Shown here in pieces: positions 18,501 to 55,923 of a DNA stretch of 64,000 bases. Origin of the DNA: Paraspadella gotoi (lineage: Eukaryota > Animalia > Chaetognatha); contig CM119268.1 of assembly GCA_051294375.1 (NCBI GenBank), forward strand, positions 857,218-921,217. Reading direction: 5' to 3'. Below the pieces are notes generated by a model. It made no database searches. It was not told where the DNA came from and worked only from the letters and a program-made list of their open reading frames with translations. Each line of letters opens with the position of its first letter. Position 1 is the stretch's first letter. The translations under genes were made by a program, and so were the position numbers.

Positions 18501-20190
18501 TATTTCAATAAATTGTTTCAATTGTATATTTGATGAATCTGAATTAACTAATTAAATATTTAAACATTTTAGCGATTTCTTGAGTTGCTAATGTAAAAAA
18601 AATGATTTTAGAGTAATAATAAAAATTAATTAATTTAATTGATTAATTAAAAAAATTATTAAAGTAATTTCTCATTTCCCCCCCCCCAGTATCTTTACAA
18701 AACGCGTCGCGTAATTCGTCTTCGTCTCAAGTTTTTCCTGAAGAGAAAAACTCTGTCAACTTTAACGCCCTGTCCGGTGACTTTATGATTTATATATATC
18801 TGTATATTTATTATAGATAAGAAATTGATGATACCACTTCATTTAATAAATGAGCTATCTTGCCCCAGACTTTGGAAACTTTGGACAGGTTATTGAGGGT
18901 CAAGGCCTTCCTCCCGCTTTCAAGATAATAACTTAGCAGGATCCTGCAAGAATACCGTGAAGTCTCTCCCACAGTCCAGTTTATTCACCTGGCTTCCCTA
19001 TCAATGAAGTCGTATTATGGCGAATCCTAAATTCGCCGTCTGTATCGTCTGGTTGAACTTAGCTCGTCCCATTAGCTTGAACAGCTAATCCCTTCACGGT
19101 CACGCTGGTTAAGTAAGATGGTGCCTGCATACTGCATGCAGTGCATAGACAAGTAGTGTCTGGGGGTGGTCACTGCCGGTCCAAAGCCCTGAACGCCAGC
19201 TGTCGGGAAGTGCCTTATACCCCGGGTATCACACATGTCTACCCGTTGCCATAGTATAATATTTTAACGAATAATTATATTACACTCATGAGCAAAAAAA
19301 AAATGTACCACTTTATAACATTAAATTATAAACATTTTATAAAAATATTTTTAAAAATTTTATAAAAGAATTTTAGATTTTATATATAGTTAATAACAGA
19401 AGCATTTAAAGTTTATCGTATTACTATAAATCATAAAAAATTTTTTTTCAAAATCTGAATTTTTAAAAACTGATTCGGGTAAAGATCAAAAAAATAAATA
19501 AAAATTATTACTATAAGATTTCCAAATTTTTTGGTTTTATTGCTTAAAATTAGCAAAAACTATAAAAATTATGGTATGACGATAATGATGATGATTTTAA
19601 AGAGTTTTTCCATTATTTGACCCACTTATCATCGAAATATTGAAAAACGCATTGTACTTTGCGCAGACAACTTTTTATGGGCTATCTGAATCTGTTCTTA
19701 AAAAATAATATTTTTACAAAAAATTGTTTTCATTGCCTATACATTGATAAATATTTAAATGCTTTAATGTTATACTGTGCTTCACTAGTTAAAAAATTGA
19801 TAGTAAATATTGATTAAGTATTTGATGGACAAATGAATTTTATATTACAGAACTCTTATTGATAAAAAGTGATCAATTTTGGCCCGCCTTCCTGTATATA
19901 CGTATTTATTCAAACCAAACCATATCTCCAATTTAAAAGAGTGATATGACTTGATAAATTCTTTGGTAGATTTCAATAATACTGCAATAGCTTTATACAC
20001 CAGTAATTAGTAACAATACTGCAATGCTGTAATTCTTGTCTACTTTCCTCAGGATCAACGATATCTGTGTCGCCGTTTCCTTTCTGCCGCATTTGCCACA
20101 TGGCGGCCAACGACTGTGATGAGCCTTTGATCTCACCGTGTCGATGCTCAGGGACAATGAAATACATCCACGGCTCCTGTCTTATGGTAT

Positions 20191-24587: not shown

Positions 24588-27500
24588 ATGCATACCTTTC
24601 CACCACCACAAACCCGCCACCCTGCCAAACTTACCCCAGTCTCAGCCATGCCTCACGAGACGGAGGTGGCCGTGGTCAAAAAGCCAGGGGTGGTCTATTC
24701 CCCGGCGGATTGGTTCACCTCTGGCTACACCATCAGTGTCAACGCGGGAACCCAAAGGAACAATTCGGAGCAGGCGAGATTTTAGGATTTAGTGTTTGGG
24801 GGGGCCGGATTTAAGGTCAGATAGAACTAATTAACTATCCATATCTTTTGTGTCACCTCGGGTACATAGGAATGGGTAATGTGCTTGGAACCAGGCTTGA
24901 AGGTTTTCCAGCCTCCAGGTCCCCCAATGCGGATTACGATCGTCCTCACGCTCCCCGCGGGTTAGGTACCATTGGGGATCTATCGCGGTACAATTGGGGA
25001 TCGATCTTGGTACCATTGGGGATCGATCCCGTTACCTAATGGTTCTGAGCAGATGTCTTTAATCAATAAGCTACCGAGTCACAACTGAACGAGTTCTGTT
25101 TAAAGACGTGAACTTGGCGCGAGGCAAGACTACAGGTCTTCCGGTTTTTTTTATTAAATTATTGTGAGAAAAATATCAAACCAATAGATATTTTCGGCGT
25201 TGGAGGCAAAAGTTGAAACCCGTAAATAATATTAGTATGAAATTAAGAAGTTATAAAAAAGAATAATTTAATGAAATCCTCAGGTTCGCGCTCAATCAAA
25301 GTATCTCATCAATGAAACGGACAACAAAACTTTTTGGAACGAAAGGAACAACAGAACAAGAATCGACGAACGAAATATCGAACTGGGAAATTGGCGGGAA
25401 GCTCTGACCAAATTGATTAAGGAAATTGACAACGACATCAGCGGTTTGAACGATTTGCTGTTGCTGTTGTATCTTGTTGTTGCTGTTGTTTCTTGTTGTT
25501 GCTGTTGTTTCTTATTGCTGCTGCAGCATAAAGACGAAAATCTAATCCGACTTTTTAGTTTATTTTTTAAAAAACAAGGGCTAAATTTTACTTTCGCCGA
25601 ATGGGGTTTGGGCGACTTTTGAAATCTCTTTAAAATATTTATTTAAAAAAAACTTTTTTTAAAAAAATTATTTAATTACTTTAACCCTAAACCCTTTTAA
25701 CCTTAACCCCCCCTTAACTTTAAACTACCCTTAAACCCCTCCAAAATCTAGCCAGGACGGGCTTTGCCGTCTGGCTCGATAAAAACTTTCGTCTTTCTTA
25801 AATCTAAAATGAGCAACAAAAAAGAAAGGCTAAATCTAAATCCTTTCAATAAATGTTGATCTTTTTCCTTTTTATCAAACAAGAATTAAGCGTGGCGAAA
25901 TCTAAAACGGAGGCATGCATCGCTGAAAAAAACGTGGCTCTCGACGTCGCAGTGGAAAATCTCACCGTTTTAGATGGGAGAGTTCAGGTACAGATGGCGT
26001 TTCTAACAATTAAATAAGTGCAGTTACAGATGGCGTATCTAACAATTAAATAAGTGCAGGTACAGATGGCGTATCTAACAATTAAATAAGTGGAGGTACA
26101 GATGGCGTATCTAACAATTAAATAAGTGGAGGTACAGATGGCGTATCTAACAATTAAATAAGTGCAGGTACAGATGGCGTATCTAACAATTAAATAATTG
26201 CAGGTACCGATGGCGTATCTAACAATTAAAAGTGCAGGTACAGATGGCGTATCTTACAGACAATTAAAACTTATAGATAAAACTTTATTCTAATTTAAAA
26301 ATTTGACCTCGTGTTAAGACTTTCTTTTCGTTGCGCTATTTAACTAAGCTAAAGAGAAAACAAAGTTTATTTGTTTACAAACAACGTGTTTTTTATTTAA
26401 AAAAAAACGGACATGTTTCGACTCTAATTTTTCGATTCTTCATCAGCGCGTAATGAAAATTTTGTCAAACATTTGATGAAGGAAAACAGAGAGAGAGATA
26501 TATATATATAAAGGTTTTCTATTAAATATTTGACCTTAATCTCTCATCAAATCCTAAATAAGCTATCTTGCCCCTGACTTTGGACAGGCTTTGGTGGTTT
26601 AAGGCCTCCATCACTCTTACAAGATGATGACATAGCAAGTCCCTACAATTATGTTATTATCTTGTAAGTGGGATACAGGCCTTGACCAGCCAAAGCATGT
26701 CCCAAGTTAGGAGCAATGATAGCTTATTGAATGAATGGATAATTATTATATTGTTTGTACCAATTTCATGGCCATTTTTTTTCTCTATTCTCCAACCCCA
26801 ACCACCCCCCCCCTTCCAGGTGGACAACGTCCGTGACGACGTCTTTGACGAACTCAACAACGAAGTCAAAGTCATTCAAGGGACGAGGATGAATTTGCAG
26901 CACAAAGTGCAGCAAGCCTTCGAGCAGCTCTGCCTGCTGCGGGAGGCGCGGCAGAACCTGCAGCGGGATTTGGAGGATAAGACGGTGAGTTTGTGTGAAC
27001 GTAAACGTGAACTCCGTGAATCTTCATGGCATGTATAATATACATTGTATATGATATTGTAATCTGTAAATCCTATCGGTTTTGTGTGCGAGGCTTATGT
27101 GTGGCTGTTATCTGTGAATGCCGAAGGCCTATGTGTGAATCTGTAAATTGTGAGTCCTAAATGGCTTGTGAGAGAGGCTGCGTGAAGTTTGTAGTAGTGT
27201 GTAATGTTATGGCCTGTAAGTGAGACCTCAAAACTCAATTGACTTTGGCAATATAATTGCTGATCGATTGCGTGTGAGACTCTAAACTTTGACCCCCCTA
27301 CCTTTTGAGGTGACTCACGGGGTCGGCATTCACAATTCACAATTGACGCCCGAAGCTCCTGGGATTTCTTTTAAACCGGATCCGACGAGGATTCCTAAAG
27401 GCAGAGCAGAGATGAAGGAAGGGAGGGGAAATGATTAGGATAAAGAAAACTATTAGTTTGTTAGTTTATAAATTCATAGCATCAGTTGTGTATGCTATTA

Positions 27501-30396
27501 TTTACTCTTGTATAGACTGTCTACTATAGTTTATGTAAACCTTATAGTGTCGAAGGTGACATCACGTCACTAATTAGTTGATTATTTAATTGATTAATTA
27601 ATTAATTAATTAATTAGTTGATTATTTAATTGAGCGGCTCCGCTGTCCTTTTTAGTAATCATTTGTTTTCGCGATCATTTCCGTTTTGATTCGAATTTTA
27701 GCGCGATCCTTATATCACGAAACAAAACGAGTAATTAAAAACCAAAAAATTAAAATAAAACGGATAAAGATATAAATATTAAATCTTCCAATTTTTTTTA
27801 GGCGCCAACACAAAAGAACAGTCGGAGCAGCTTTCGCTCTATAACCGTCAGAGGGCTGAGGCCGAGTTGGACGCCTCGCAGAAGCTGAGGGAGGCCATTC
27901 AGGTTTTGGGATTGGGTTGTGGAGAATGGTTGTGGAGAATGGGTTGTGGAGAATGGGGGGGTGAGGACTGTGGGTAGGAAAGGGGTTTAGTTCCAAGGGG
28001 GTTGGGGTCTTGTCTCCGTTCCATGGATTTAAGTGAGACCCTGGGGTACCCCAAGAATTGAACCCGGGACGCGCGGTTAAGACGGTCATCGAGCCGAGGC
28101 TGTTGACGGCCAGCGGTGAGGCAGATTTCAACTCGTACGGTCGCTGGATGGAACTGAGAGATAGGGTGGGGGGAACCGATCAAGATTATAAAATCCTGGA
28201 CAAAACGCGAAAGAAGATATGATAGAGTCCGAGATTTTAACTTACCCTACACGACCTTACTTCTTTTACCGCTCGCCAGGCGGCGTTGATGCAATCGGCA
28301 AACGACATCGAGGCTCAAAAGACGGCGACAGAATACGCGTTGAGAAGAAGAATACACGAGACCGAAAGAGCTAAGGACGAATTGGAATGGCAACAGGCGC
28401 AGGTAAAGAGTGGTGTCGGGCGAATGGGGGAGAAAGCCTGGTGGCAGGCTCAAGTAGGGTTTGGTAATTGAGTTAAAATCGTCATTCGTTATTAAAAGGT
28501 GATGAACGAGATCAAAGACATGGAAGGACAAATCCACGATTTAGAGATGGCGCTGCGAGCAAAGAAGAACATTCTCAAGGTTAGACGAGACGGGATTAAT
28601 AAAATAATATTAAACATAATTGTTAAAGATATTAGAGACTCATTTTAGCTGTATTTAACAATGTTTAACGCTGTTTGTCAATGAATATTAAATATAAGAA
28701 ATAAAAAACGAAACATTTGAAGAAAGATGTGAGGACTTGACTCGACCGATGATGATTTTTGACTCTCACCTTTGTCTTCACTCCCCTTAACCGTAAGAGG
28801 TCATGAAAACTTGACCCCTTGACCCACTCAGGTCTAGATCTTCTGACCATCTCAGGTCATGAAACCTTGACCCCTTGACCCGCTCAGGTCTAGATCTTCT
28901 GATTATCTCAGGTCGTGAAATCTTGACGCCCTGACGCACACGGGTCTTAAGTAATGATTAATTCTCATTAAAGTCGTGATCCTCTGACCGTGCACGGTCA
29001 ATTTGCTACTTGGATCCCTGACCCAAGTGTTAATAACGTTAATAAGTGTTAATAAGTGAAGGCAAGTATCGGGTTGACATTCGTTTTATTAAAGACGGAC
29101 AATGATTAAGGTGATGTCAAAGGTAACGATGACACTATGACAAAGGTTACGACAAAGGTGATGACAATAATTATGTATTTGAGTCTTTAGTCATTAGTCT
29201 CTCTGTCGGTCATTGGTCGGTCTCAGGTTCATATAATTATAAAGTCTGTGATTCGTCGGCTTTCTTTCGAAGACGACAAGCAATCACGTTACAAGGCCGA
29301 CCACACCCTCCCGCCCTTTTTTTTTTTGGATCACACCCTTCTCCTTTTTTTGGACCACACCCACCCCCCCTTTTTTTTGACCACATTCAGGTTGCCCACA
29401 CGCGACTGGAGAATCGCGCAGATCATCCCAACGTCGAACTTTGCATCGATGAGATTTATTACGGACTCGTGGACGAAGTCAAGCAGCTTGAGGCCACCGT
29501 CAACGCTTTGAATGTAAGTCGGAGAATTACTTGATTCATTGGGGGCGTGGCCAAGCAGCTTGAGGCCACCGTCCAGGCTTTGAACGTAAGTCGGGAGGAT
29601 CCTTTGATTGGTCGGGGAGATGAAGCAGCTATGGTCTTCTCCCTCTTTAATTTTTTAACATTTTTTTTTTTTGCACAGGCCAAGCTTACCGATGCCAAGC
29701 ACCAACTGAACTCTCTCCAATCGGAACTGGCGACCATCAACGCCGACCTGACGGCCAAGCACAACGCCGTCAGCATTTTGAAGGTTCGTTTGATTTCTTT
29801 TCATTTTCTATTCTCTCTCCCATCTTTCTTTTCTTTTCATTTTCTATTCTCTTTCCCATCTTTCTTTTCTTTTCATTTTCTATTCTCTTGCCCATCTTTC
29901 TTTTTTTTTTCATTTTCTATTCTCTTTCCCATCTTTCTTTTCATTTTCTATTCTCTTTCTCATCTTTCTTTTCTTTTCATTTTCTATTCTCTTTCCCATC
30001 TATCTTTCCTTTTCATTTTTTATTCTCTTTCCCATCTTTCTACTTTTTTTTTCTTTTTTTTTTCTCTTTTTTTTTCTCTTCCTCTTTTCTATTCTCTTTC
30101 TATGTCTGGCTTTTCCATTCTCAACCTCTCTTCTCTTATTTCCAATCCCTACATTTCTTCTCTATTTCTTTTGTTACTCCCTTCTCTTATCTTTTCTCCT
30201 CTCTTATCTATTCCCAAACTCTCTTCTCTATCTTCCTATCTATTCTCTCCAGGGCATGATGGACGCTCGCGCTCGACTCGAAGCCACGCCCAAAACCGCG
30301 GCCGAGCTCAATCTCACGATGACGGGAATCGAGAAGGAAGAGTACAACTTCTTGGCCAAGAACGCCAGGCTCAATCCCAAGCCCAATGCTGTTTGA
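24588..30396 (+). CDS. TEKT2: Tektin-2 (tektin B1-like) ciliary/flagellar filament protein
   Basis: Exons 24588-24773 (start may be ATG 24648), 25284-25443, 25884-25987, 26820-26984, 27310-27400, 27802-27902, 28280-28402, 28499-28579, 29391-29513, 29679-29783, 30253-30396. Motifs DWFT..NA..QR, QKVQQAFEQLCLL-like (LQHKVQQAFEQLCLL), ISFKPDPTRIP, ATEYALRRR and the tektin signature HTRLENRADHPNVELCID (cf. RPNVELCRD) are colinear with tektin-2 as remembered. Confidence 0.92.
24878..25055 (-). mobile_element. Degenerate family B LTR fragment in tektin intron 1
   Basis: GCTTGGAACCAGGCTTG, CGTCCTCACGCTCCCCGCGGGTTAGGTACC and GGGATCGATCCCGTTACCTAATGG match family B in reverse; the GGTACCATTGGGGATC segment is internally triplicated. 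Confidence 0.65.
25985..26268 (+). repeat. 36-bp minisatellite starting at a tektin splice donor
   Basis: About 7.5 copies of CAGGTACAGATGGCGTATCTAACAATTAAATAAGTG. Confidence 0.95.
26555..26768. mobile_element. Foldback MITE copy (same family as 2210-2692)
   Basis: AATAAGCTATCTTGCCCCTGACTTTGGACA is inverted against TGTCCCAAGTTAGGAGCAATGATAGCTTATT, followed by the reverse TIR ..TTGTACCAATTTC. Confidence 0.65.
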
Positions 30397-32363
30397 GGAC
30401 GAAGGAGGAGGAAGATGAGGAAGATGAGGGAAGAGGAAGAAGGGGGAAGAGGAGGAAAAGGGATGGGGAAGAGGAGGAAGAAGAGGAAGGGGAAGAGGAG
30501 GAAAGGGATGGGAAGAGGAAGAAGAGGAGGAGAGAGGAAGGGGAAGAGGAGGAAAAGGGATGGGAAGAGGAGGGGAAGAGGAGGAAGGGGAAGAGGAAGA
30601 AAGGGATGGGGAAGAGGAGGAAGAAGAGGAGGGAGGGAGGAAGGGGAAGAGGAGAAAGGGGGAAGAGGAAGAATGAAGAAAATGATAAAAAAAGAAAGAT
30701 ATTAAGAATTGAACGGAAGAGTAAAAAAAATTGAGAAAAGCTATAGTATGCCATAGTTTATAAAGGAGAGAGAGAGAGACAGACAGAAGGTAAAGAAGCG
30801 TCGATATCAGGATTAATTAACCTCTCGTTCTAAAACAATTTTTTTTTTAGACGGGTGAAATTTTTTTAATCTAAATCAAATTTAGGATTGGAGTAATCTG
30901 TGAATTATGCGGTCCGAGACTTTGTTGCATGAAACTTATTTGAAGACAATAAATACTTTTTTTTAGTGGTAAAATTGGGAAGCATCGTTTGTTTATTTTA
31001 GATTCGGTCAAGTGAGTTTTTTCAATATTCAATACTGTACCATTACAGATGAATAAAACCTATCAAATAAAGCGTAGGAATGTAACCTATTAACCGAGAA
31101 ACATTTTTTGGCGAGTTGATTGAAGACTATTTGAATTACCACACCGACAATGTTGTTAGATATGTTCATTGACTATGACCAGAGAGAGAGAGAGAGAGAG
31201 AGAAAGAAAGAAAGAGTAATTCGGCCTAGTGTTTTTCCTCGTATCAGTATTTTGAGCTTTTAATGAAATAAAAAAGCGTGAAAATATCTCCAAATCACCC
31301 ATTGCCTAATAATATCTCCAAATCACCCATTGTCTAATAATAGTATTTGTAAGTACATCATTCTCTTAAGATTTGCAAGGGCTTTCAGAAGATAATCATA
31401 ATATTATTATTATATTTAAAATTTCTTCAAAAAACTAACTGAATGTAAGAGAAAAAAATCCAATCTGAAAACAGTGAGTTTAAAAATCCGAGACGATTTT
31501 TCAAATCTATCTTCCAGCTATCATTGCTAAGGCATATCAAAGTCGAATCATATAAACTTTGCATACAACAATAGTTTTGGTTTTTACTCTTAATTTCATA
31601 TTTAACATTGAAAAAATCTTCATGGGTTTGCAAATGGAAGGGTTTTTTTACCGGCGCTTGTAAAATTGTCACCATGTAAAAGCGAATGGTGGGTAAACTA
31701 TAAAATAACAACTGAGTGAAAATTTACAGCATGTTAATCATTCAGTTCCCTGTCATTGGCCTTAACTTGTAAACACGTCATCTACCTGGCTCCGTTTATT
31801 TTTAAAAGCCACGAAGACAAAATTTCCTAGTCGTCGTCGGGTCCAGGGTTCGAATCCCGAGACCAAGGGTCGAGACTTGGTTGTTAATTCGGGCCAGAAA
31901 TGCTTCCTTACACTTCCAACGAACAGATTTGCGAATTGTAGAAAGGAAAAGCTTTTTATAACAAAAAATGTGTTACAAATAATTAAATCATTTATAAACA
32001 ATTTATTTAAAGAAAATGATAAACCTGAACAGAGAGCAGAGGGGGGGGGCGTCGTGATGAGATACTGGATAACTCGAGCAAAGTGTGTCCATTGTCCAAT
32101 GCCAAGGCCCTAGGGGTATGAAAGATTATCCAACAGTTGCTGAATTTTATTTTCAAGCGGAAGTCTTGCTAACGGTAGTTTCGAGTTCGAAGTAGAAGCA
32201 TAAACTTTTTTGCTGATGGACGAAAAACGGCAACTGGCATATGGCATATCCAAAGTTACGTGGGCTGAAGACTATCTTCTGTGCTCGCTTTGCAGCAATG
32301 GAACGGGACCTGGTCGTGAGCCAACGGGTCACGATTAAAGTTGTCATGCTTAATGCTTATATA

Positions 32364-33046
32364 TGTAGTCGGGCATTGCCTAGGTTCACCCCGCTATAAG
32401 CATGACACCTTCAGTCCTGACCCGGTGGCTCATTGAGTAAAGCCATCAGCTCATGACCACTAGGTACCGGGTTCAATCCCAACCCGGTACTACCCTGCGG
32501 GAAGGTGAGGACGGCCGTAAGCCGCCTTGGGGCGTGGCAACCCTCAAGCCTGGTTCCAAGCCCAGGACCCGTTCCATGCTGCTATAAGGGGGTTATAGAA
32601 GTTAGGATAGTCATCTTACGCCCACTTAGCGCCTTATCACACTGGTGAGCCCATCCTGTCGAGCGTATTCCAACCTTCTAATTCCAGGCCCAGGACGTGC
32701 TGAAGATTGCTCCCCTCCCTCCACTGGAAGCATGCAGGGTGGGTTACAATCTGGGGGGCATGTAGTCGGGCATTGCCTAGGTTCACCCCGCCTATAAGCA
32801 TGACACCTTCAGTCCTGACCCGGTGGCTCATTGAGTAAAGCCATCAGCTCATGACCACTAGGTACCGGGTTCAATCCCAACCCGGTACCTACCCTGCGGG
32901 AAGCGTGAGGACGGCCGAAAGCCGCCTTGGGGGCGTGGCAACCCCTCAAGCCTGGTTCCAAGCCCAGGACCCGTTCCATGCCTACTAAAGGGGGTTTATA
33001 GAAGTTACGGATAGTCATCTTCAGCCCACTTTGCGACTTATCCACA
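32364..33046 (+). mobile_element. Complete TRIM (family B) with a tRNA-like Pol III module in each LTR
   Basis: LTR1 32364-32641 and LTR2 32761-33046, both TGTAG...CA. PBS TGGTGAGCCC at 32643-32652; purine tract GGGGGGCA just before LTR2; TSD TATA at 32360-32363 and 33047-33050. A-box TGGCTCATTGAG (32426) and B-box GGTTCAATCCC (32470) lie inside the LTR. Confidence 0.88.
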
Positions 33047-33167
33047 TATAATATATAAGAATTTATATAGAATATATATACAGAATATATATAGGCGGGG
33101 TGAAGTTGTTGAAACGCCCGAGAAGATAATTATGTTTTTGATTTTTATCTTCAGGATTCCGGATTTG

Positions 33168-33205
<38 letters not shown>

Positions 33206-33741
33206 ATTCGACAATGATTCAGCTTTATTACGTTGTTCTCGAGAAAATAACATTGAACTTTTAATCGTTTACTTCACCGTAAAACATTTCCCTAATTATT
33301 TAAAATGCTCTCTTATTATTTAAAATTATAAAATAATTCGTTCATTTAATAAATAAACTTACTTTGGACAGGTAATCAAATCTAAAAATTTTAAATAAAT
33401 AAAATAAATATTCGTTATGTTTCTGTAAAACGAGTTTCGATTAGTTTGGAATATAAATATATCAATATAATATTATCACAAAAATTCGCAGTTGCCATAC
33501 TTCTCGTTTCCAGCGTTTCTTCTGCTTACAATGTTAACGTCGCACAAACAAAATAATTCGCCCCCCCCCCAAAAAAGAACAATATATTCTACAGTAAAAA
33601 CTTTTCGCAGTATTTTAGCATCCACTATCCACGTCACTAATGTATGAAGTTTCATTTGGCAAGGTTCCCAAATCAAACTTCTGACCCACCCCATTGACAA
33701 AGTTTGGCTCTATCACTCTGCTTCGGTATTCGACAAACGCC

Positions 33742-36700
33742 ATGAGCGTCCGACGGTTAACCGCGCTCTCTCTCGTGGCGAATCAGCGAATTACGATAAC
33801 AACAAAGCGTCGAAAATATTTCGCCTCGTCCTCGATTTTAGATGAAACACAAGTACAGCTTAAAATCGTTGCACCGTAGCGACGCAAGTTCGGCTAAACT
33901 TTACATTCGCCGACCGGGTATTTGCGGTCGGTTATTTGTTTTTCGCTTCTCATGAGCGATGAATACAAATCACTTTATGTAAAAATAAAAATGATATTGA
34001 TATGGGTAGAAAATTTTTTTACAAATTTCATTTTAAAAACTTTCTTAACACTAACTAACCCCTATTCACCTTTAATCCAATTATTAACAGCTTAAAAAAT
34101 ATAATATAAAAATAACAATTAAGATAAATTTAAAATAATTATTCAAACAAATTATGGTGGACTAAAATCCACCAACCGTTCATCAGCGGCCATTGGTGCC
34201 GGAGGCAAGTCATTCGCCTCCCAACCCAAAGGTCCGGGGTTCTAGCCCGGTGGTCGTCTGGCAGTTAGAGGGACGGGGCGCTTAACCCGCCTGTAACATG
34301 GTGTTACAGCCTGATCCGAAGCTCAGGGACTGCTTATATTGAACGGTTCTGTCACTATCACATAACAATAATTACTGTCTCTTCATTGGTGAGCCCGACT
34401 TCCGAACACAACAGCAACAACACTTTCAGGCGACATGCCTCAACCTGGCGATGCACTTTCGCCCACAACACATCAGGCGACATGCCTCAACTTGGTGATG
34501 AACTTTCCACCAACAACAACAATTCACTGAAGAGACGCAACAGACTTCTCCCTACGGGAGGGGGGATGTATGGTGGACTAAAATCCACCAACCGTTCATC
34601 AGCGGCCATTGGTGCCGGAGGCAAGTCATTCGCCTCCCAACCCAAAGGTCCGGGGTTCTAGCCCGGTGGTCGTCTGGCAGTTAAGAGGGACGGGCGCTTA
34701 ACCCGCCTGTAACATGGTGTTACAGCCTGATCCGAAGCTCAGGGACTGCTTATATTGAACGGTTCTGTCACTATCACATAACAATAATTACTGTCTCTTC
34801 AAAATAATATATAATTTGTATTATTGCCAAAAAAATATGGGTCCAGGGCTCTGAACCAGGCTTGGGGGTTTTCCAAGCCCTTAAGGCAGTTTACAGCCGT
34901 CCTCCAGCTTCCCGCAGGGTAGGTACCATTAGGGATCGATCCCGGTACCTAATGGTCACGAGCTGATGGTGATATGCTTATAGGCAGGGTGAACGTATAC
35001 AATGCCCGTCTACACATACTTTTTAAAATAATTTTTTACAATAGACTTGCATTTTTCAATAAAATTACTTTTTTAGATAGATTAATGAAACATAAAAATA
35101 AGAACATAGTACAAAGAAGTATACTAAATATAAATTGATTACTCCCCCAATCCAAAGTCCACTCCTCTTCCCCCGCCAGTTCCCCTTCCCTTCTCATCGA
35201 TCCCCGGTCCCCTCGACCTTCCCTTCTTCGGTTCTCTCTTTGGATTCCGTCCCTTCTCATCATTGGATCCCCTCTGCCCCTTTTCCTTCTTCCATCTGCT
35301 CCATTCTCGTTTCGGCCATACCGCCAAATTCAGGATCCCTCACTATGGGACCTTCGTCTCCGTGACTCGGCCGGAGGACATGGAATGCGTCTTCAGGAAA
35401 GCGGGGAAGTTTCCCGATCGAACGGGGAAGCGAATGGCCTTTGTGGAGTTGATGCATCGATCCCGGAGGAAGCGGGTAGGGTTAAAAGAATAGGGTGGTC
35501 AAGGGTGTTGCAGGGAAAGTGTGGGCAAATGGCATTGTGTTAGATGTGTGGGAAGAGTATTTGGGGACAGTGTGGTCGAGAAGCGTTGTGGGCAAAGTAT
35601 GGTCGAGGAAATTGTTGGTTGGTATGTTATTAATATTAAGGAATTTGTGGGGAAAGGTTTATTGTGCTATTAGAAATAATTGCGTTGACCTATATACCAG
35701 ATATCTATATACCAGAAAATCGACTGTAGCGATGGGCCGATTTATTCAGAGGTGTTCGCTGGAGGTCAGCAACCGGCTTACCCTTTTAATCCAGTTGGTG
35801 AGATGACCCGATGCTAGTGTGTAGTATATCACAGTATTTTCTAATTTACTACTAGAGGCAGTTGTCCTTTTATATTATTGAAAAAGTTTCTAAAACTTTG
35901 TATTATTTCATTTAGTTTAGGAAGGATAGGTATTCTGAGATTGAATACGCTAGATTTTGAGTCTTGCAGGGTCCTGCTATTTTGTTATCTTGTAAGAAGG
36001 ATGGAAGTTTTCACCGACCTCAGCTCGTTCAAAGTCAAGACCCACATAACATATTCGGTGAATGAATGAATGAATTTTTTCAGAAAAGCCCCATTTCTGT
36101 TCCTTAATCCTTGAATTTAATTTTAATTAAATAATTATTAAACTTAATCTTTAACTTTAATCGCCAACCTTAATCCTTAACCCAAACTAAATAAGGTTAA
36201 TTTTTGCTTTTGGATCAATTTCAATAATAAATAAAATTCTGTTCAGAATCTGTTTGGAAATTTGGGTTCCGTGAGCGGAGAAGAATGGTGGGGACATCGA
36301 CGGAAAGTCAACAACATCATAATGAAGAGAACATCGGCCCATCCTTATTTGGAGGATCAGTGCAGAGTGGCAGAGGAGATGATGGGATGGATCAAGGTGC
36401 TGTTATACTGATATAGACTGTAATTTTAATGATCGTGGTAAACTTTTTTTTAAAAATAAACTTTATCATAATCGTACAATTTTTAAAGTTTTTTTAAAAT
36501 ATTTATTAATATCTTAATTTATATCTTAATTAAAAAATAACTACATTAATAAATAGCATAATTGATGATCGATTCTGCTTTTTCAGTTCAACTTAACGTC
36601 GGACGGCGACTTGAACGAGGACCTCTTTCGAGTTCTCAACAAATTCGCTCTCTCCGCGATTTCTTTGGTTTTGTTCAACGAGGATCTGGGGTACTTTCGA

Positions 36701-38733
36701 ACCGGGTCGGTCGGTCAGTCCATCGATTACCCGGTCGGTCAGTCGCCGGACGAATTTCTCGACAACGTCTATCGTTGGTTCACCCTCGGCGCCGCTCTTC
36801 AGTTGAGGGCAAAATTCTCGAGGATAAATTGGACAAAAACGGAAAGGGTGAGTCTGTCTGTCTGTCTGTCTGTCGATATATCTAGTTTGTCAAGTGTTTT
36901 TAGCCAGTTAGTAAATCTGTTGTGTCAGTCCGTCTAGTCTTCAAGACTGTCTTCTTGTCTGTCAGCGTGTCTGTCGATCTAGTATGCCAGTCGATCAGGT
37001 TTTACAGTCCAAATAGCCTGTCTTTTCTCTCTTCTGTCTCTTTATTCTGTATGACAATCTAATCTATCTGTGTGTTAGTCGATCAGGTTTTTCAGTCCAA
37101 AGAACCTGTCTTGGGCTCAATTTTTCCAAAACGCCCCATTTCATCTTAAATTCGGAATTAAATTAGTACTTAGCGTTAGAGATTGCGATTGATTAATTCT
37201 CAATTCAAGACCTACTTAGCATTAGAGATTACAATTAATTAATTCTAAATTCAAGACCTACTTAGCGTTAGAGATTACAATTAATTAATTCTCAATTCAA
37301 GACCTACTTAGCGTTAGAGATTTCAATTTATTCTTTGCCCTTTTTTTACCGTCAGGACTTTTTCGCCGCTGACCAAGCTTTGATCTCCTACGCGGAGGCG
37401 GCTTTGTCCAAAAGTCTTCAAAGCGGGGATGCCTCCGATTTCATCCGTCAACTTTGGAAACGCGAGGATCTCGACTCGCGTGACAAGTTGGCCATCGTGT
37501 TGGACATGCTCAACGGAGGCGTGGACTCTACCGGGGCTTCCGCCGCTTGGCTGCTTTACAATCTGGCCAGGAACCCGGCAGCGCAGGAGAGGCTGCGGCG
37601 GGAGATCGCGGAGACTGTGGGAATGTCGGCGTCGATCGAGGCGGCGCTGCTGGACAGGTTACCTTACCTGGCGGCGGCCGTGAAGGAGAGTTTCAGACTG
37701 ACCCCAATTAATGTGGGGACGTCGAGGGTCTTGGCCGAGGACGTCGCGCTGGGAGGATACCTCGTGCCGGCTGGGTGAGGATCGGGATAGAATGAAGATC
37801 GGGTTAGAATGAGGATCGGGATAGGATGAGGATCGGGATAGGATGAGGATCGGGTTAGAATGAAGATCGGGATAGANNNNNNNNNNCGGGATAGAATGAA
37901 GTTCGGGATAGAATGAAGATCGGGTTAGAATGAAGTTTGGGTTAGAATGAGGATCGGGATAGGATGAGGATCAGGATAGAATGAGGATCGGGTTAGAATG
38001 AGGATTGGGATAGCTATGAAATATGTGTATCACAAACGTATTATGATGGATAATTTATCTGCAAAGTTTTAACTGAAACAAACAAATTTTACGATAATTT
38101 TTAAGTTTTGATTCCGTATTTATTTTGTGAAACCACAGGATTAAAATCATGCATAAAAATTATTTACTGATTCCTTCCTGATTGCTAAGAATTAATTATT
38201 TTATAAATTATAATTCATGACGTATTGAATTTCGAGTTATATGATCCTGTGATTGTACAAGTTTTATGGCACCTTACCTTACCTTACCTTACCCAAATAT
38301 GAACTAAATTAATTAACTTAAGTATTACCCGGGTTATGAGCATTTTTGGACTGACCGACTAAAAAAAAGTTTAATTCCCAGAACGAACGCGGTCATCAGT
38401 TACTGCGTGACTTGTCATCAGGAGAAATACTTTACCGACGCTCATCTCTACCGCCCCGAGCGATGGCTCCGCGACGGCACGGCCCAGAGGATACACCCTT
38501 TCTCCGTGCTGCCTTTCGGGCACGGGCTACGAATGTGCGTGGGCCGTCGGTTCGCGGATCAGGAGCTCAAAGTCATCGTCATCAAGATCCTGCAACATTT
38601 TCGGATCGAATTCCGGGGAGAAGAGGCCAAACCTAAAACTGGGCTTTTCAATCATCCTGACAGACCGATGCTGTTCCGGTTCGTATCGGGGGAGAGAGAT
38701 GAGAAAGAGAGAGAGAGGGAGAGAGCCCCTTAG
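33742..38733 (+). CDS. Cytochrome P450, mitochondrial clan-like
   Basis: Exons 33742-33852 (Arg/Ser-rich transit-peptide-like, less certain), 35158-35475 (PFSSIPGP), 36247-36396 (GEEWWGHRR, WxxxR), 36587-36847, 37356-37774 (I-helix GGVDST, K-helix ESFR) and 38382-38733 (PERW; heme motif PFGHGLRMCVGRRFA). Phases are consistent. Confidence 0.92.
34153..34801 (+). mobile_element. Complete TRIM (family A) with a tRNA-Gly-like module in each LTR, in CYP intron 1
   Basis: Near-identical 233-bp LTRs at 34153-34385 and 34569-34801. PBS TGGTGAGCCC at 34387-34396; [14 protein letters not shown] at 34556-34566; TSD AAAT at 34149-34152 and 34802-34805. A 73-nt tRNA-like segment (34186-34258) has a CCC anticodon loop and B-box GGTTCTAGCCC. 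Confidence 0.9.
34838..35014 (-). mobile_element. Diverged family B LTR copy
   Basis: Reverse complement reads TGTAGACGGGCATTG..CTATAAGCAT..CATCAGCTCGTGACCATTAGGTACCGGGATCGATCCC..CTACCCTGCGGGAAG..AAGCCTGGTTC..GGACCC, colinear with 32364-32570. Confidence 0.75.
37168..37330 (+). repeat. 46-bp tandem repeat before a CYP acceptor
   Basis: About 3.5 copies of ACTTAGCGTTAGAGATTACAATTAATTAATTCTCAATTCAAGACCT. Confidence 0.9.
37776..38012 (+). repeat. 17-bp minisatellite starting at a CYP splice donor (contains an N gap)
   Basis: Tandem TGAGGATCGGGATAGAA variants directly after GG|GTGAGG. Confidence 0.9.
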
Positions 38734-40912: not shown

Positions 40913-43900
40913 AGGTAGTAAATTAATTGGCCACAGCATCCTGATTTATTATTAGCATATGAATAATAAATCCATTATTTACGATTCATATAATTTTAAA
41001 ATTTTTCACGATTTCATTTGTCCTGATCATTAATGATCTCAACGGAGCTAAACAAACCAATAGCCAATAGCCAATGGCCAAAAGGCATTCGCAATGGATC
41101 ACTGATCACCATTCTGCCTCCGTTGCATTGCAGGCTACCGTCAACTCTTTCTAGTTTCCTTCGACGGATTCTCCTATAAATTCCTGCAGGAATTCAAACA
41201 GTTTTACCCCAATTTCTTGCACATGGAGAAGAACGGTGCTTCTGTGTCAGGCAAGAGATTTTCATTGCATCCGACAATCAGGAAATCAGTCAAAACTTGT
41301 TCTTCTTCTTCTTTTTTTTTCTCTCTCTCTCTCGTTGTTCTTGTTGTTCTCTTGTTGTTTCGCAGCGCCGGGGAACATCCCCCCGTTCTTTTCCGACACC
41401 GGTCCAGGACATTTGACGGCGCTCACTGGTCTGCATCCGGAGAATCACGGCATCGTGGCAAATACATTTTACGATCCGGAATTTAAGGAAATTTATAAGT
41501 CAGTTGACCTACTTTTACTTTCGCCGACCGGGGTTAGGGAGGTGGTTAGGGTTAAGGGTAGTTTAGGGTTAAGGTATTTAAATAATTTCTTTTTGTTTGT
41601 AAATATTTTTTAAATGGTTTTCCAAAAGCCGCCAAAACCGTGGACGGCGAAAGTGAAATTTAGCCGTAATGGATTATGTACGTAAAAAAATAATTAAAAA
41701 AAGATTTTTAAATGACCGAGAGGAGAGAGAGTCGCCACGCCTCCCTGTGAGTGTGGATAAGCCTCACACTTAGTGTGCCCAGTGAGTCTGTGAGATTTTC
41801 CCGTCAGGTGCCTTGCCTTCCGGAACGACGGATCCGGCGTTAGGCTTGCTACCGGTGTTTTAACCGGCCCGACATTCTTCCTGCAAGGACTGTTCCGTCT
41901 CGGGCTAGAACCCGTGACCATTAGGTTCGGAGATTAAGCGTTAGCCCCGTGCGCTATTACGGCGCTGATGGAAGGAACAGCCGTATCCAACGGAGAGTGA
42001 TATTACATCACTACAATTTCTTTGTTTTTTTTTATTCGCTTTAAAAAGTTATGCTGAATTCGACAAAGTTCATTTAAAAACAAATAAAATAGTTTATTGA
42101 ATTAATTTATATTAATTACATTAATGGATTAAATGATTTATTAGCTTATTTACCGCGAACAACGAGACCAAGTGGTACTTGAGAGAACCGATTTGGTTCG
42201 ACATCGCGAGAAACAACCTCACCAGCGGCGTCATATATCCCTTGGGTAAGTTCCTAATAAGTAAATGTTGATACGTACTGCTTAATGTGGCTCAATTGCG
42301 GGCAGAAAGTTAAATATCAGACTTAATGGCGACAATGGTTAAGATGAAGCTGTGGACGCTTTCTTAGTCTGTCTCTCTCTCTCTCTCTTTCTCTCTCTCA
42401 GCTTCAGCCATTAACAACATTTTGCCCGGGCTCTCAGTTGGATCCCAATCATTGGATTACGAGGGCAAGATTGACCAAGCCTTGGATTGGTTGGAGCAAG
42501 GTGAGCTCATTGAGAGCAAGGTGGGCATTGATTTGGCTAATTGCTTGCCTGGAGGCGGGCATAAGACTTGCGTAATAAATCTTATCTCTTTAGGAACCAA
42601 CTTTGTCTTCTTACACTTCGACGTGCCCGATCGACTGGCTCACTTGTTCGGGGAGTATCTGAGCCTCGGAATTCAAATGGATTATTTCTTGGGTGAACAG
42701 TGAACAGAGTTGGATTCGATTGTAAAAATAAGTAAATTAGCCTTTAACGCCGAAGTGACAAATGTCTCCCAACTCAGGAAAGATCCTGAGCGGACTCTCC
42801 GATCGAAACCTCACCTCCAAAGTGAACCTGATCGTGTTCAGCGATCACGGGATGACGGATGTTCACCCGTCTCGATCCATTGATCTCTTCGACTACATTC
42901 GTCGAGAGTTAGTTTGTTAAATTAGTTTTAGACATCGCGATCGTCTGTAGTCTTGTTTAATATTGCATAAGAATATTGTCGTAATACTATTTATTAATTC
43001 TATATAAAATTTCTATCAAATCGTTGTTTCCATAAAATTAATTTTGGGCCGATAATTTTTGGGGGTAAAATTAATTTTTTTTTAGTTTTTTTTTAACATT
43101 GCCAATGGCATTGGGTGAGGCCATTTGTTCTTCCACCAATGAGAGAGCTAGATTCTATCTCTTGCAGATTCTTCTCACGTCGCCGATCAGATTCCTTTTT
43201 TCTTTCTTCCAATTCGACAATTTGCCCACCGAAAAAAAAAAATAATGATCCTGGAACGCTATTAACTATAAAAATTAAAACGAAATCGATTAGATCAAAC
43301 GTAATCCAAAAAACAAATTACCAAATTTTAATTGTAGAAAACTCCAGGTTTAAACCTCACCTTTCCAGCTCCGTTTTCCTCGTTACGTCCGAGGTCAACG
43401 CCAACATCTGGCCATCGCATCCCAACCTCACCGAGGAGATCTTCGCCAATCTAAGCGGCGCCCATCCGCACATGACCCTCTACCGGAAGGAGGACTTACC
43501 CGACAGATGTCACTGCAGGAACAGCAGGAGGATCGCGCCCATCGTCGTCATGGCCGACGAGGGTTGGTGAGTTAAGAGGCGAGGGTTAAGGGGGGAGGTT
43601 AAGGGGAGGTTAAGGGGAGATTAAGGGAGGTTAAGGGGGAGGTCGGGAAGATGAGAAAGAGGTGAGGAGAGAGGGGAGAGTAAAGGAGAGAGGGGAGCGA
43701 GGAGAGGAGAGAAGGGATAGGATAGGGGAGGAGAAAGAGGAGAGGGTTAAGGGGGAGGTTAAGGGGAGATTAAGGGAGGTTAAGGGGGAGGTCGGGAAGA
43801 GGAGAAAGAGGAGAGAGGGGAGAGTAAAGGAGAGATGGGAGCGAGGAGAGGAGAGAGGGAATAGGAGAGGGGAGGAGAAAGAGGAGAGGGGAGGGGAGAA

Positions 43901-47845: not shown

Positions 47846-49628
47846 TTTTGTTTTGATTGAGACGGACGATTCTCGCCTCTTAGCTCGAAACAATAAATCT
47901 AATGGAAAAAACATGTGACCCGGTTTTTGGCGGGATTGTTTGAAGAGCGGATAATAGCGCCCTCTCTATCTTTCTCTCATTCTCTCTCTCTCTCTCTGTC
48001 TCTCTGTCTCTCTCTTTTTTCCCTTTCTTTTTCTCTTTTTTTAGAATGAGTGAGGAAGAGAGAGAGAGAATGAAAAAAAGACAGAGTAAAAGAGAAAAGA
48101 GAAACAAAATCAAACAAACAATTTGAGAAAACAATACCAGCTAACCATCCTCTTTTCCCTCAAATTAAATATGTAATAATTAATTAATTAATTGAATAAC
48201 TTAATGACTAATTAATTAATTAATATTTTTTTAATTAATTAATCAGAGTTACAATTTATATAAAAATAAAAAAGCATAATCAATTTGTGAAACAGATTTT
48301 TTGTTTTTTCCATTCAAACTCATTTCCACTCGGAAGATTCCATCAAAACTTGATTTCCAGCTCAATCACACATTTCCTCACCCACACACAAAATTTCTAG
48401 TCAGTAGCCTCATCCATTCATGAGTATTTATCGTTAAAAGCTGAGAGAGGACCGTCGGACGGACGAATATAATTTTTTTTGGCATAATTTATCATAATTC
48501 TAAGTTCTGACACGATCTAAATGACTTACCGACAAGATTTTTGTGGTGGGACCGACGGACCGACAAAGTGAATCGTCGGGCCGGTATGTACTGTAAGCAG
48601 ATCCGACTAAAAACTTCCAAGAAACTCATCAAGAAAACTCGATTTGTTAATTCGTTTAGTATTTCCGTTTTATTTGGGGGGGGGGTTTGGTTGACGTCAT
48701 CAGTGAAGGTCACGTGATGTCGTGACTCCTCGACGACGACGACGAAGACGACGATTCACACGCGACTCTTTCGGGACGTTTGAACTTTGACCTCTATTAG
48801 AGGATGTCAACTCCGGTCCTTCCGTGGCGCGATTCGTTAGATCTAGAAGAAGCTGACGAGAAGGTCCAGCGTTCGTGGTGAGAAACGAGCGGATTGACGG
48901 ACGGTAGACCACGTGAGATCTTTAAAACGCATTCATTTGGAAATTACGACAAGATTATGACAATTTGATGCGTGAAAATCTTAAGACCCTGCTTTTCGAT
49001 TACCGCGCTCTAACCGGTTTAAATTGGTCGCCTCAATTTTATTTTTCACATTCAATTTCATAAAAACGTAAACTTTTAACTTTTATCGTAAAATATTCGT
49101 GGAAAAAATTCGGAAATTTTATGGCGACGGGGAATGAAACCTTGGCCGTGGGTCCAAGGCCAAAGCTTCGATCCAAAAAAGCGGGGGTTCGTCGGTAAAG
49201 AAAGCCTTGGACCAACGAGACATTGTCGGTCCGAGCCAATTAGTCAATCGTTAGCGAGCGAGGCGCCGAGAAAGTGTCGGTCCACGCCCAATTCCATTCC
49301 CAAGCCCAAAGTGTCGGTCCAAGCCCAATTCTTTCGGGTCAAATGTGTCGGTCAGCATTCAACCTCCGCCAATTTCGACCGCAACTCTGTCGGCTCAGCC
49401 TTTTTACCGACGCCGGTCACGTGACAGGAGAAGATGAACTCGATCGTCCTTGCGTGACGACGACGACGACGACGACGATGAAGCCGGCTGCGTTGATTAG
49501 TCCGCGAGGAGGAGCCAGGAGGCAGACGACTACGACGATGACAACGACGACGATGAAAAAGAACAACAACCGAAAGACAAAGAGAAAATTTGACGTCGCG
49601 AAGAATTGACGTTCGAATAGACGCCATA

Positions 49629-49740
49629 TGACGTGGTTTTGTGACGTAGTTGGCGATGGATTGACGTGGTTTTGTGACGTAGTTGGCGATGGATTGACGT
49701 GGTTTTGTGACGTAGTAAGCGATGGATTGACGTGGTGACG
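49629..49740 (+). repeat. 33-bp tandem repeat rich in TGACGT cores (mirrored at ~57540-57650)
   Basis: TGACGTGGTTTTGTGACGTAGTTGGCGATGGAT x~3.3. Confidence 0.9.
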
Positions 49741-50644
49741 CAATGAGAGACGGAATAGAGAGAAAAAATCTGAGAAAAACAATAAAAAGAAAAAAACGGA
49801 AATATAGAAAGAAAGAAAAAAGAAAGAAAGAAAGAAAGAAAAAAGAAGCAAATATATAAACACAAGAAACAAACAAAGAAATAAATAAGGAAAGAAATAG
49901 AGAAATTTAGAAAGAATAAAGTTGCAAAAGAAAAAAAAGAAAGAAAAACTCGGACAAGAATTTGAGGAAAGGACAGCTGTGAAAAAAGAAAACTGCTCTA
50001 GACAAGAGAAAGGCTTTTGATTAATTTCCATTTTCGCGAAATCATTCTCTCTCTTCATTCTTCAATCACGAAAAAAATCAATCTCGATTGTCAATATCAG
50101 TAATCGATCTTGATCATTCTGTAAATCAATGTAGATGGTAAAACAATGAACCAATCAATAAATCAGTCAAGAGGTCAATCGATTAATTAATCATACCATT
50201 AGTGATTAGAGAACTCTTTGCGCTGTTTCGCCAATTTTTTGCGTTTCTGCACCATTTTAAGAAAAAATAAAAAACGTAAAAAAAAATCAGACTAAAAATT
50301 TACAGTTACTTGAACTTGATTTAAACCCTAAATTTTATATTTGTTGTACCATTTTCGTATTCAACCCTAATGTTTGGCTCAATTTTAGACCGAAACCCTA
50401 AACCATTCCTCTTTCAACGTATATTCGTAAACTTTCAATGATAAATTTTCCAGTATCATCAATGATGATGATTCATCATCGAATCTCATTCTAGTTTCAT
50501 CAAAGCGTCAAACGCCTCATAAAAATCTCTTCTTTCTGGATTCGTTAAATAAAAAACAACAAACTACGGTCAACTAAACAGAATCACTGAATCACTCAAT
50601 CACTGAATCACTGAAGCGGCGCTGAATTGTTATGCAACAGATAA

Positions 50645-50707
<63 letters not shown>

Positions 50708-50899
50708 CGCAAAAAATCTCTTCTAATCTCACATTCCGATCGTTTTGCGCTCTCTGTCTCTATGTCTATCTCTCTCACTCTCCCTCTCCCACACACTCAC
50801 ACACTCGCTCTCTCTCTCTCCCAAAAAAATTCGTTCCCTCCGTCAAGGATCCCAGGATTTCATTATTTTTTTTCTCCTCAAAAATTCTTAGAATCTCTC

Positions 50900-50930
<31 letters not shown>

Positions 50931-51249
50931 TCCCCTTTCTCTCTATCGTTCTCCTCTTCCTCCTCCTCCTCTCCCTCCTCCTCCTCCCTCCTCCTCCTCT
51001 TACGATGAATCGATCACGATCATCTGTCTTCTCTTTCTCCTCCTCCTCTTCCTCTTCCTCTCTCCCGTCGATTGACTTTCTCTTCATATTTTCCTTCCAT
51101 TTCCTCCTCCTCCTCCTCCTCCTCCTCCTCCTCCTCCTTTCGAACCTTCTCTCCATCTTTGTCCATCATGGTTACTCTCCTTCGCTCTGGATGAATCAAA
51201 GGCACTATAAACAACAACCAGGCTCTCTCGCTCTCTTTCTCTCCCAGGC

Positions 51250-51326
<77 letters not shown>

Positions 51327-52129
51327 AGAATCTCTGAATGGTAAGCAAATCTTCGAGGGAAAAAGAACGACGACGACGACGACGACGACGACTGCTCTCA
51401 ACCACCCAACACAAGTTTATCATCGTTTCTCTTCCCTTTTTTCTGCCAAAAAAGTAAAAGCAGACGAATTTTTCGTTACACGTTATTTTTCTCTTCCTCT
51501 CGCTGGGGCGGGTGTTGTTGTTGTCGTCGACGTTGTTTTCGTTTTTTTTTGTTTCGTTATTTTGTTTTTTTTTTCTTCGGATTTTTTCTCGCGGAAATTT
51601 TTTTGCTCTTTGAGAACCTTACCTCAGTCTGGTTGACTCACCCGACAGCCGCGGATTTCGAAAATAAAAAGAAGAAAACAACAGGAATTTTTTTTTTGTT
51701 GCAAAAAAATGGACTGTTTCAATTGTCATGTATATCACTCGCTATTTAACTTTTAACCGTGAATAATTGAATAATTTTGAATTAAAAACGAAGCCGTTTT
51801 GCTTACGAACACATTTACCGAAATCTACCGGTGTTTTTTTTTTTTTTTAATTCGACCGATGAATCCCAATCAAAACTAGTTTCTTGATCCACATTTATTT
51901 TCCGATTAATTTTCTATTTCGTTTACATCAAATCGATGAAAAGAAAACTGACTCGCCACCCCGAAAAAAAAAAGCCGTAAGTCTCGCCACAAAGATACAA
52001 AAAAATGACATTGCCGTATTTGTCCTTTTTTTCCCATATTGCCACATTTTTTCTTTGTTTTTCCCAAAATTTAATTTTAACTTCAGTATTTAACATAAAT
52101 ATATTTATAAACTTTTTAACTTAATCCTA

Positions 52130-52729: not shown

Positions 52730-52777
<48 letters not shown>

Positions 52778-53098: not shown

Positions 53099-53194
<96 letters not shown>

Positions 53195-54085: not shown

Positions 54086-54130
<45 letters not shown>

Positions 54131-54488: not shown

Positions 54489-54551
<63 letters not shown>

Positions 54552-55891: not shown

Positions 55892-55923
<32 letters not shown>

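Follow-up and report, generated by a model that had tools for sequence, protein, structure and literature searches.

Twister-type cores predicted in the long terminal repeats of two Helenus-type miniature retrotransposons of Paraspadella gotoi

A 64,000-nucleotide stretch of DNA from the chaetognath Paraspadella gotoi (GenBank assembly GCA_051294375.1, contig CM119268.1, positions 857,218 to 921,217 of the forward strand; hereafter the window, whose numbering is used throughout) contains two miniature long terminal repeat (LTR) retrotransposons, element 1 (32364-33046, + strand) and element 2 (34153-34801, + strand), in which each LTR joins a tRNA-like module to a predicted self-cleaving RNA fold of the twister type. 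We consider them to be, more probably than not, Helenus-type elements with a twister core that would replicate in the manner of plant retrozymes, through a circular unit released by self-cutting. The ribozyme fold distinguishes the two elements from the described Helenus elements and is the main feature absent from an earlier reading of the same DNA (the original prediction).

Structure of the elements

Both elements have the order LTR, primer-binding site (PBS), spacer, polypurine tract (PPT) and LTR, are flanked by a 4-bp target-site duplication and share the same PBS. Element 1, which represents the family with a CAT loop in its tRNA-like module (family A), spans 683 bp between two copies of TATA (32360-32363 and 33047-33050), the left one lying in a low-complexity AT context. 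Its LTR1 (32364-32641, +; 278 bp, TG...CA) is followed by the PBS TGGTGAGCCC (32643-32652, +; an exact sequence match), by a PPT of six G residues that ends 2 nt before LTR2 (32753-32758, +), and by LTR2 (32761-33046, +; 286 bp), at both termini of which loose contigs end. The two LTRs are 94% alike. Element 2, which represents the family with a CCC loop (family B), spans 649 bp between two copies of AAAT (34149-34152 and 34802-34805). It consists of LTR1 (34153-34385, +; 233 bp, TA...CA), the PBS TGGTGAGCCCGAC (34387-34399, +), an internal direct repeat of 40 nt with a period of 47 (34426-34512, +), a PPT that likewise ends 2 nt before LTR2 (34556-34566, +), and LTR2 (34569-34801, +; 233 bp). 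Its LTRs are 99% alike and begin with TA rather than TG; the boundary is settled because a solo copy of this LTR (4130-3933, - strand) also begins with TA and has a duplication of its own, ATAT. The elements lie 1106 bp apart, which bears out the original prediction of two miniature LTR elements about 1.1 kb from each other with the duplications TATA and AAAT.

The PBS is the only part in which the internal regions of the two elements are alike. As had been predicted, it is identical in both and starts one base after LTR1: the 64 kb contain exactly two occurrences of TGGTGAGCCC, both one base past an LTR1. Compared with the tRNA-Trp PBS of Kojima 2024 (Fig. S2), 9 of 10 letters agree in element 1 and 12 of 13 in element 2. 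Self-priming was ruled out, since the complementarity between the PBS region and the element's own LTR does not exceed 5-6 nt. Ordinary tandem short interspersed elements (SINEs), the outcome that the original prediction had set against its own, were also ruled out, by the PBS, PPT, termini and duplications; in the window, an exact 4-bp duplication flanks six of the seven LTR-bearing units examined, one of which relies on an end chosen post hoc. The sole long open reading frame (ORF) within element 2 has no match in Pfam.

To place element 1 in its family, contigs from four public sequencing runs (nine listed) were aligned to positions 31900-33057, and variants were counted from contigs at least 85% alike. 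Contigs stop in unlike flanks precisely at the LTR termini, 111 at 32761 and 40 at 33046 (run X3), and the LTR is therefore a dispersed repeat with these ends. The summed contig depth over element 1 is 1e5-1e6 versus 78 on the flank, a ratio that is not a copy number. These data show that the element 1 family is very abundant and dispersed. The PBS carries no common variant among those listed in the family contigs. The LTRs of element 1 differ mainly by single-base indels, and several sites of this copy deviate from letters that are nearly fixed in the family; assembly error and real decay are indistinguishable here. For the element 2 family, copy number and variation rest on three copies within the window.

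A twister-type core in every LTR

Each of the four LTRs contains a twister core of type P5, which lies 17-20 bases past the arm of the B box. In element 1, the core of LTR1 (32498-32571, +) is a P5 permutation with a P3 hairpin, with P1 CGGCCG at 32512-32517 and a predicted cut at 32518/32519, and that of LTR2, located by descriptor (32897-32973, +), has a predicted cut at 32918/32919. In element 2, the core of LTR1 (34261-34333, +) has P1 GGCGCT at 34277-34282 and a predicted cut at 34283/34284, while that of LTR2 (34677-34749, +) has a P1 one G shorter (GCGCT) and a predicted cut at 34699/34700. The strand order is the same in both elements: the first half runs through the P5 5′ strand, the P2 3′ strand, G-A, a 3-nt pseudoknot strand, P1 and U-A-A, and the second half through the P2 5′ strand, GC, the P3 hairpin, P4, U, a pseudoknot strand, A-A, GC, P4 and P5. 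P4 comprises 5 bp in both elements. The conserved twister nucleotides of L1 and L4 are present, namely the general-base G, the A, the cut-site A, and the U and A of L4; a further LTR family in the window (family C, below) differs at two conserved positions.

Twister-P5 is the best Rfam match for LTR1 of element 1 and is aligned over the full model (22.1 bits; E 0.012 on the LTR, E 0.22 on 5 kb), although the cores described here differ from this model, which lacks P3 and has a loop on P1. No hammerhead match was obtained in the Rfam scans. The matches of a strict descriptor are confined to LTR cores, with none in 60 shuffled windows and none in 5000 shuffles per LTR. A looser descriptor, in which P1 was left free, finds five cores (18268, 32507, 34272, 34689 and 26612), compared with 0.08 per shuffled window (100 shuffles).

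Several observations weigh against a genuine twister. The 22.1 bits of element 1 fall below the Rfam gathering score of 37.6, element 2 has no Rfam twister match, and gathering-level Rfam matches are absent across the whole window. P2 is short and bulged, with 2 bp and a third across the bulge. The folding z-scores of five cores (-0.03 to -1.66) are unremarkable, and the minimum free energy (MFE) folds, which recover P3, P4 and P5 for element 2 and for LTR2 of element 1, engage the pseudoknot strand in a competing hairpin. Position 32918, the -1 position of LTR2 in element 1, is A here and T in 97.7-99.9% of the depth of the family contigs; LTR2 is altered at the cut site or right beside it in each element, so that the two copies described here may be impaired. 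The descriptors, moreover, were composed after the sequences had been inspected, and the variation among copies is therefore the better evidence.

Across 10 aligned cores, 87% of cells pair, and both partners vary in 10 of 15 pairs. The score for covariation, 0.564 versus 0.014-0.173 for slid-partner controls, is inflated by related rows, a further point against the fold, and comes from an alignment with two misregistered rows (the family D copy D1 in P1/P2 and LTR2 of element 2 in P1). The 3-bp pseudoknot between L1 and L4 reads UCC/GGA, CCG/CGG or CCA/UGG in different families, with 93% of cells paired, and the 2-bp pseudoknot between L2 and L4 reads GC/GC or AC/GU, with 95% paired. At least 10 common substitutions fall in the ribozyme spans of the element 1 family; among the 10 listed, eight lie inside the P3 loop or on its border, one at the end of P5 preserves a G-U pair, and one is the cut-site A peculiar to LTR2. 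The pseudoknots, P1, P2 and P4 are free of the listed common substitutions, and a common one-base insertion after 32504 fits the P2 bulge that the family shares with element 2.

A pattern that combines the B box and the core matched 19 and 2 times in public metagenome and viral contigs. None of these 21 matches has a fully Watson-Crick 3-bp pseudoknot, and a self-complementary P1 occurs in one; the same pattern has two matches in the window, both of which pair in every helix. Because of the poor pairing, the public matches are attributed to chance, and thus no relative outside the source genome was found. A family-specific twister pattern had no match in the metagenome and viral contigs.

The fold is termed twister-type because it has no intramolecular P1 and stays below the Rfam threshold. 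Judged by its sequence variation, a genuine fold of this type in the LTRs is very probable. Active cleavage by the LTR cores, as modelled from that fold, is likely, with less assurance than the fold itself.

A palindromic P1

The P1 segment is 6 nt long (8 nt in family D), which leaves no room for a loop. Of 11 copies, 10 show full self-complementarity in this segment, over seven different sequences (CGGCCG, CGAUCG, CGGCUG, GGCGCU, GCCGGU, AGGCCU and UGUCGGCA). The sole exception is LTR2 of element 2, which is one G short; LTR1 of that element and the solo copy both have six nucleotides. The self-duplex is calculated at -6.3 to -10.7 kcal/mol versus +2.9 to +6.4 kcal/mol for the hairpin (+4.1 to +6.4 kcal/mol for the 6-nt segment), so that the normal P1 hairpin within one molecule is impossible and only a duplex of two copies is stable, an arrangement that itself speaks against an ordinary twister. 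In 4 of 10 aligned rows, both partners are changed in the central pair of P1, a pair that no hairpin could accommodate.

The palindrome is a hint of pairing between two copies: P1 would pair with the P1 of a second copy, which would activate cutting or dimerise the RNA. Two points count against such a step. The inter-LTR P1-P1 pairing probability is 0 for element 1 in the pseudoknot-free ensemble, and P1 is dispensable for twister cleavage according to the sections of PMC5408937 used here, which weakens the need for a dimer. Given both, the role of the palindrome may instead be in RNA dimerisation or in closing the circle. A requirement of the dimer for cutting is thus a conceivable but somewhat doubtful feature of the model.

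tRNA-like module and transcription signals

The tRNA-like module of element 1 (32426-32480, +) comprises an A box (32426-32437), a CAT loop (32450-32456) and a B box (32470-32480), and that of element 2 (34188-34256, +) a weak A box (~34194), a CCC loop (34218-34224) and a B box (34238-34248). The B box is clear in both elements; the A box is good in element 1 (TRGCY) and poor in element 2. Neither module folds into a cloverleaf, ARAGORN reports no tRNA, and the Rfam tRNA model has no match at E<=10, which rules out a functional tRNA in the LTRs. The tRNA-like module of the original prediction therefore stands for the boxes and not for a tRNA structure; the likeness is at the level of motifs and is limited to the boxes. 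A lone perfect B box within a short T-arm-like hairpin, with no twister behind it, was also observed at 31847-31857 (+).

The replication route could be retrozyme-like with a module that is a mere relic, the RNA being supplied by read-through or by an RNA polymerase II promoter. The poor A box of element 2 and the failure of both modules to fold as tRNA agree with a relic, as does the sense orientation of element 2 inside a probable intron (below), and ribozymes make a defined transcript start unnecessary. This explanation is contradicted by the B box, which is kept at a fixed 23-26 nt ahead of the ribozyme GA in families A, B and D and is also present in family C. We regard a relic module as improbable and take the boxes to be probably in use in the route proposed below.

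Related LTR families in the window

Six further LTR-like units were recognized. A decayed solo LTR of the element 2 family (3933-4130, -) has the duplication ATAT and P1 GGCGCT. Family D is represented by a solo LTR (D1; 18156-18379, +) with a B box at 18232, an intact core at 18268-18316, P1 TGTCGGCA and the duplication AATT, and by a second, decayed solo LTR (D2; 19016-19253, +) with the duplication GTAT. An LTR of an element-1-like subfamily (24819-25134, -) has a triplicated B-box arm and P1 CGATCG; its right end was picked after the match of GACC had been seen. A 3′-truncated LTR of the element 1 family (34839-35014, -) has P1 CGGCTG and a decayed core. The family C unit (41752-42015, -) unites element-1-like termini, an element-2-like B box and a twister-like core, and no flanking duplication was found for it. 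Rearranged, reversed pieces of the element 1 LTR were also observed immediately upstream of element 1 (32292-32352, -); together with the truncated LTR beside element 2, they suggest local clustering of insertions.

The LTRs of both elements share one order of parts, a 5′ leader, the A/B-box module and a P5-type twister core with a palindromic P1. The original prediction had called the LTRs unalike. This holds for direct alignment, in which families A and B score 27 with 14 of 500 shuffles equal or better, a marginal result, and does not hold for the architecture, in which the same twister core follows the B box. The alignments A-C (score 36), B-C (score 68) and A-D1 (score 41) were equalled by none of 500 shuffles each; those of B-D, C-D and A-D2 are not significant. 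As judged by sequence, at least four LTR families of this kind are joined to one another within the window.

The same prediction had explained the two elements as unrelated miniature elements that captured tRNA or SINE modules independently and merely share a helper. The marginal A-B alignment, the unlike anticodon-type loops and internal regions that have the PBS alone in common would be expected on this account. The evidence against it is the order of modules and the unusual twister form that both elements have in common, together with family C, which bridges the two (0 of 500 shuffles). Independent capture is thus hardly credible, and the sequences make common descent or module exchange more likely.

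A further type of unit, family E, has a P5-type twister core without P3 and no tRNA module in view (26572-26616, -; 2269-2313, -). Its P1 is the palindrome AGGCCT, its pseudoknots are CCA/UGG and AC/GU, and related pieces lie at 18391-18488, 18838-18949 and ~59570-59600. The twister of the LTRs could accordingly be considered a passenger that no longer cuts, captured, along with the tRNA module, out of a SINE or Penelope-type repeat that bore a ribozyme; family E, as a twister without a tRNA module in the same window, would be a possible donor, and the two altered conserved positions in family C and the sub-threshold Rfam score would fit. The compensatory changes in both pseudoknots and in P4 across LTR families, and the core free of listed common variants in an abundant family, point the other way, and together they argue for selection within LTR elements. 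A passenger is very improbable, and a core that works for the LTR elements is preferred.

Proposed replication route

In the route that we propose, RNA polymerase III (Pol III) would start at the tRNA-like module in LTR1 and run through the element, and the RNA would cut itself at U/AA in both LTRs. Cuts at 32518/32519 and 32918/32919 would release a 400-nt unit from element 1, and cuts at 34283/34284 and 34699/34700 a 416-nt unit from element 2. These cut-to-cut units contain the PBS, the PPT and exactly one LTR. Having been cut at both sites, such a unit would lack R at its ends, and by the reasoning applied to plant retrozymes (PMC4918200) strand transfer would then require a circle. A host ligase would close the unit to a circle, which the enzymes of a Gypsy-type helper, probably primed by tRNA-Trp, would reverse-transcribe, thereby rebuilding both LTRs. 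A Gypsy helper is most likely, given the 4-bp duplications; a scan of 60 of the 70 long ORFs in the window revealed neither a reverse transcriptase nor an integrase domain. By analogy with plant retrozymes, we lean towards the circle.

An active ribozyme might, on the other hand, only form the 3′ end in place of the T run of Pol III, so that a linear RNA is copied in the ordinary LTR way; the LTR1 copy would then often stay uncut, and the RNA would keep an R that consists of the tRNA module and the 5′ half of the ribozyme. In line with this, a run of four T (T4) is absent from the sense strand of all five LTRs examined, in the part of the Kojima data used here 9 of 11 LTRs have a run of at least four T past the B box, the exceptions being the two with a hammerhead (by eye), and the rival MFE hairpin could delay cutting. 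Of 98 blocks of 650 nt taken from the window, 97 contain a T4 run; its absence from the LTRs is nevertheless weak evidence, because 26-29% of shuffles have none either. Both ribozymes have the same sequence, with nothing evident that would spare the copy in LTR1, and fish Helenus LTRs, as well as some of bivalves, have neither a T run nor a visible ribozyme. A trade of T run for ribozyme is therefore not general, which counts against our own reading too. A ribozyme confined to 3′-end formation is unlikely in our estimate, and the self-cut circular unit remains the preferred route.

If true, this route predicts a new class of 400-nt circular RNA with an exact junction, and it would explain how RNA ends are defined in a terminator-less Pol III element.

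Genomic surroundings

Probable first exons of a mitochondrial-clan P450 gene were recognized by eye at 33742-~33853 and ~35150-35470, with later exons at 37272-38733. One P450 search returned no match; a second returned 8 fragments, the best named match being 44% identical. Element 1 lies ~700 bp upstream of the probable P450 ATG, and element 2 would sit in sense in the first P450 intron, to which it would bring two predicted self-cleaving sites. Exons of a tektin gene lie at 25275-30400 and those of a nucleotide pyrophosphatase/phosphodiesterase at 41106-43570; the family C unit is located between phosphodiesterase exons, on the opposite strand. The segments 47925-53423 and 53851-59351 form a 5.5-kb inverted duplication, 97% identical, which flanks an N gap at 53424 and is either a fold-back assembly artefact or a palindromic element.

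Comparison with known systems

In the sections of Kojima 2024 (PMC10886601) used here, Helenus (TRIMp3) comprises TRIMs (terminal-repeat retrotransposons in miniature) with a tRNA-like module in the LTR and, in animals, 4-bp duplications. Its members are non-coding and 311-1263 bp in size, the tRNA part is reported as a non-functional tRNA for most families, mobilisation by Gypsy elements is considered probable, and the use of Pol III is unproven. The elements of the window have two LTRs with PBS and PPT, A and B boxes and a 4-bp duplication, are non-coding and measure 683 and 649 bp. By these features they are Helenus members; the original prediction had allowed that the class may be known. 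They also resemble Helenus, as far as those sections describe it, in the presence of several families per genome, in solo LTRs and in LTRs that start with TA in some families. In the animal records among them, the module lies mostly near the 3′ end of the LTR with little room behind it, whereas here 130-160 nt follow, which hold the twister core.

A close published match that would remove the novelty of these families, as the original prediction had allowed for, did not appear: neither TGGTGAGCCC nor the twister motifs were found in the Kojima 2024 sequence file, where line breaks can hide matches. The text of that paper does not contain the word 'twister', and it has 'ribozyme' and 'hammerhead' in a reference title only. 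In the Data S1 records that were available, no twister-like motif was seen by eye, and searches by motif gave either nothing or matches at unrelated places. The literature search turned up neither a twister within an LTR element nor a ribozyme within Helenus; subscription journals, Repbase and Dfam lay outside this search.

Two of the Helenus records do appear to hold a ribozyme. In Helenus-2_SyJa and Helenus-2_SyUm from Synergus wasps, a complete type III hammerhead that includes a loop-loop pseudoknot can be read by eye directly behind the tRNA-like module, of which the text of Kojima 2024 makes no mention. These LTRs resemble ours in a tRNA-Trp PBS that is one letter off, a self-cleaving motif behind the module and the lack of a T4 run, and they differ in having a hammerhead instead of a twister; the likeness rests on motifs read by eye. 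A bolder proposal, which we put forward tentatively and hold to be rather doubtful, is that of animal LTR retrozymes as a Trp-primed Pol III TRIM lineage that needs a ribozyme of either class, twister here and type III hammerhead in Synergus, and in which the twister would work as a P1-swapped dimer, so that cutting and circularisation would be confined to full transcripts with two LTRs and the many solo LTRs would do no harm.

Plant LTR retrozymes, according to excerpts of PMC4918200, are non-coding and have a PBS, a PPT, a 4-bp duplication, a self-cleaving motif in each LTR and a Gypsy helper; the circle model was drawn from the absence of R in their cut-to-cut RNA (Cervera et al. 2016). The elements described here share the PBS, the PPT, the 4-bp duplication, the non-coding nature and a ribozyme motif in each LTR. 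By contrast, the plant elements, as described in those excerpts, have a type III hammerhead, a tRNA-Met primer and circles of 600-1000 nt, with no tRNA-type module. Because they have a twister-type core and no hammerhead, the elements in the window are not members of the LTR retrozymes. Retrozymes with LTRs have been described primarily from plants and always with hammerheads; those of animals are tandem repeats of the non-LTR kind that carry type I hammerheads and have neither PBS nor PPT, according to the portions of PMC7761336 and bioRxiv 10.64898/2026.07.22.740005 used here.

Compared with the type-P5 twister (Rfam RF02684; PMC5408937, in part), the cores have the same strand order, the G-A and U-A-A of L1, both pseudoknots, P2, P4 and an open P5, and differ in the added P3, the loopless P1 palindrome of 6-8 nt and the short bulged P2. 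The T-variant twisters of Perere-3, an RTE element of Schistosoma mansoni (PMC8501958, in part), offer a precedent for a twister with an altered P1 that works in a retroelement; Perere-3 is, however, a non-LTR element with a single ribozyme at its 5′ end, whose P1 is completed by flanking DNA. If the present reading is true, twister ribozymes gain a concrete job in LTR retrotransposition. The minimal hammerheads of Penelope-like elements (PMC4209133, in part), which are active as dimers, likewise have a short palindromic helix by the cut site and two copies per element, but they are hammerheads within pseudo-LTRs, without PBS or PPT. Natural sequences with a palindromic P1 allow a direct test of whether twister cleavage is gated by dimer formation. 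The two elements would count as one more ordinary Helenus record if they lacked the ribozyme; if the reading is true, an abundant group of animal TRIMs with twisters in genuine LTRs would bring together Helenus and the retrozymes, which have been described separately.

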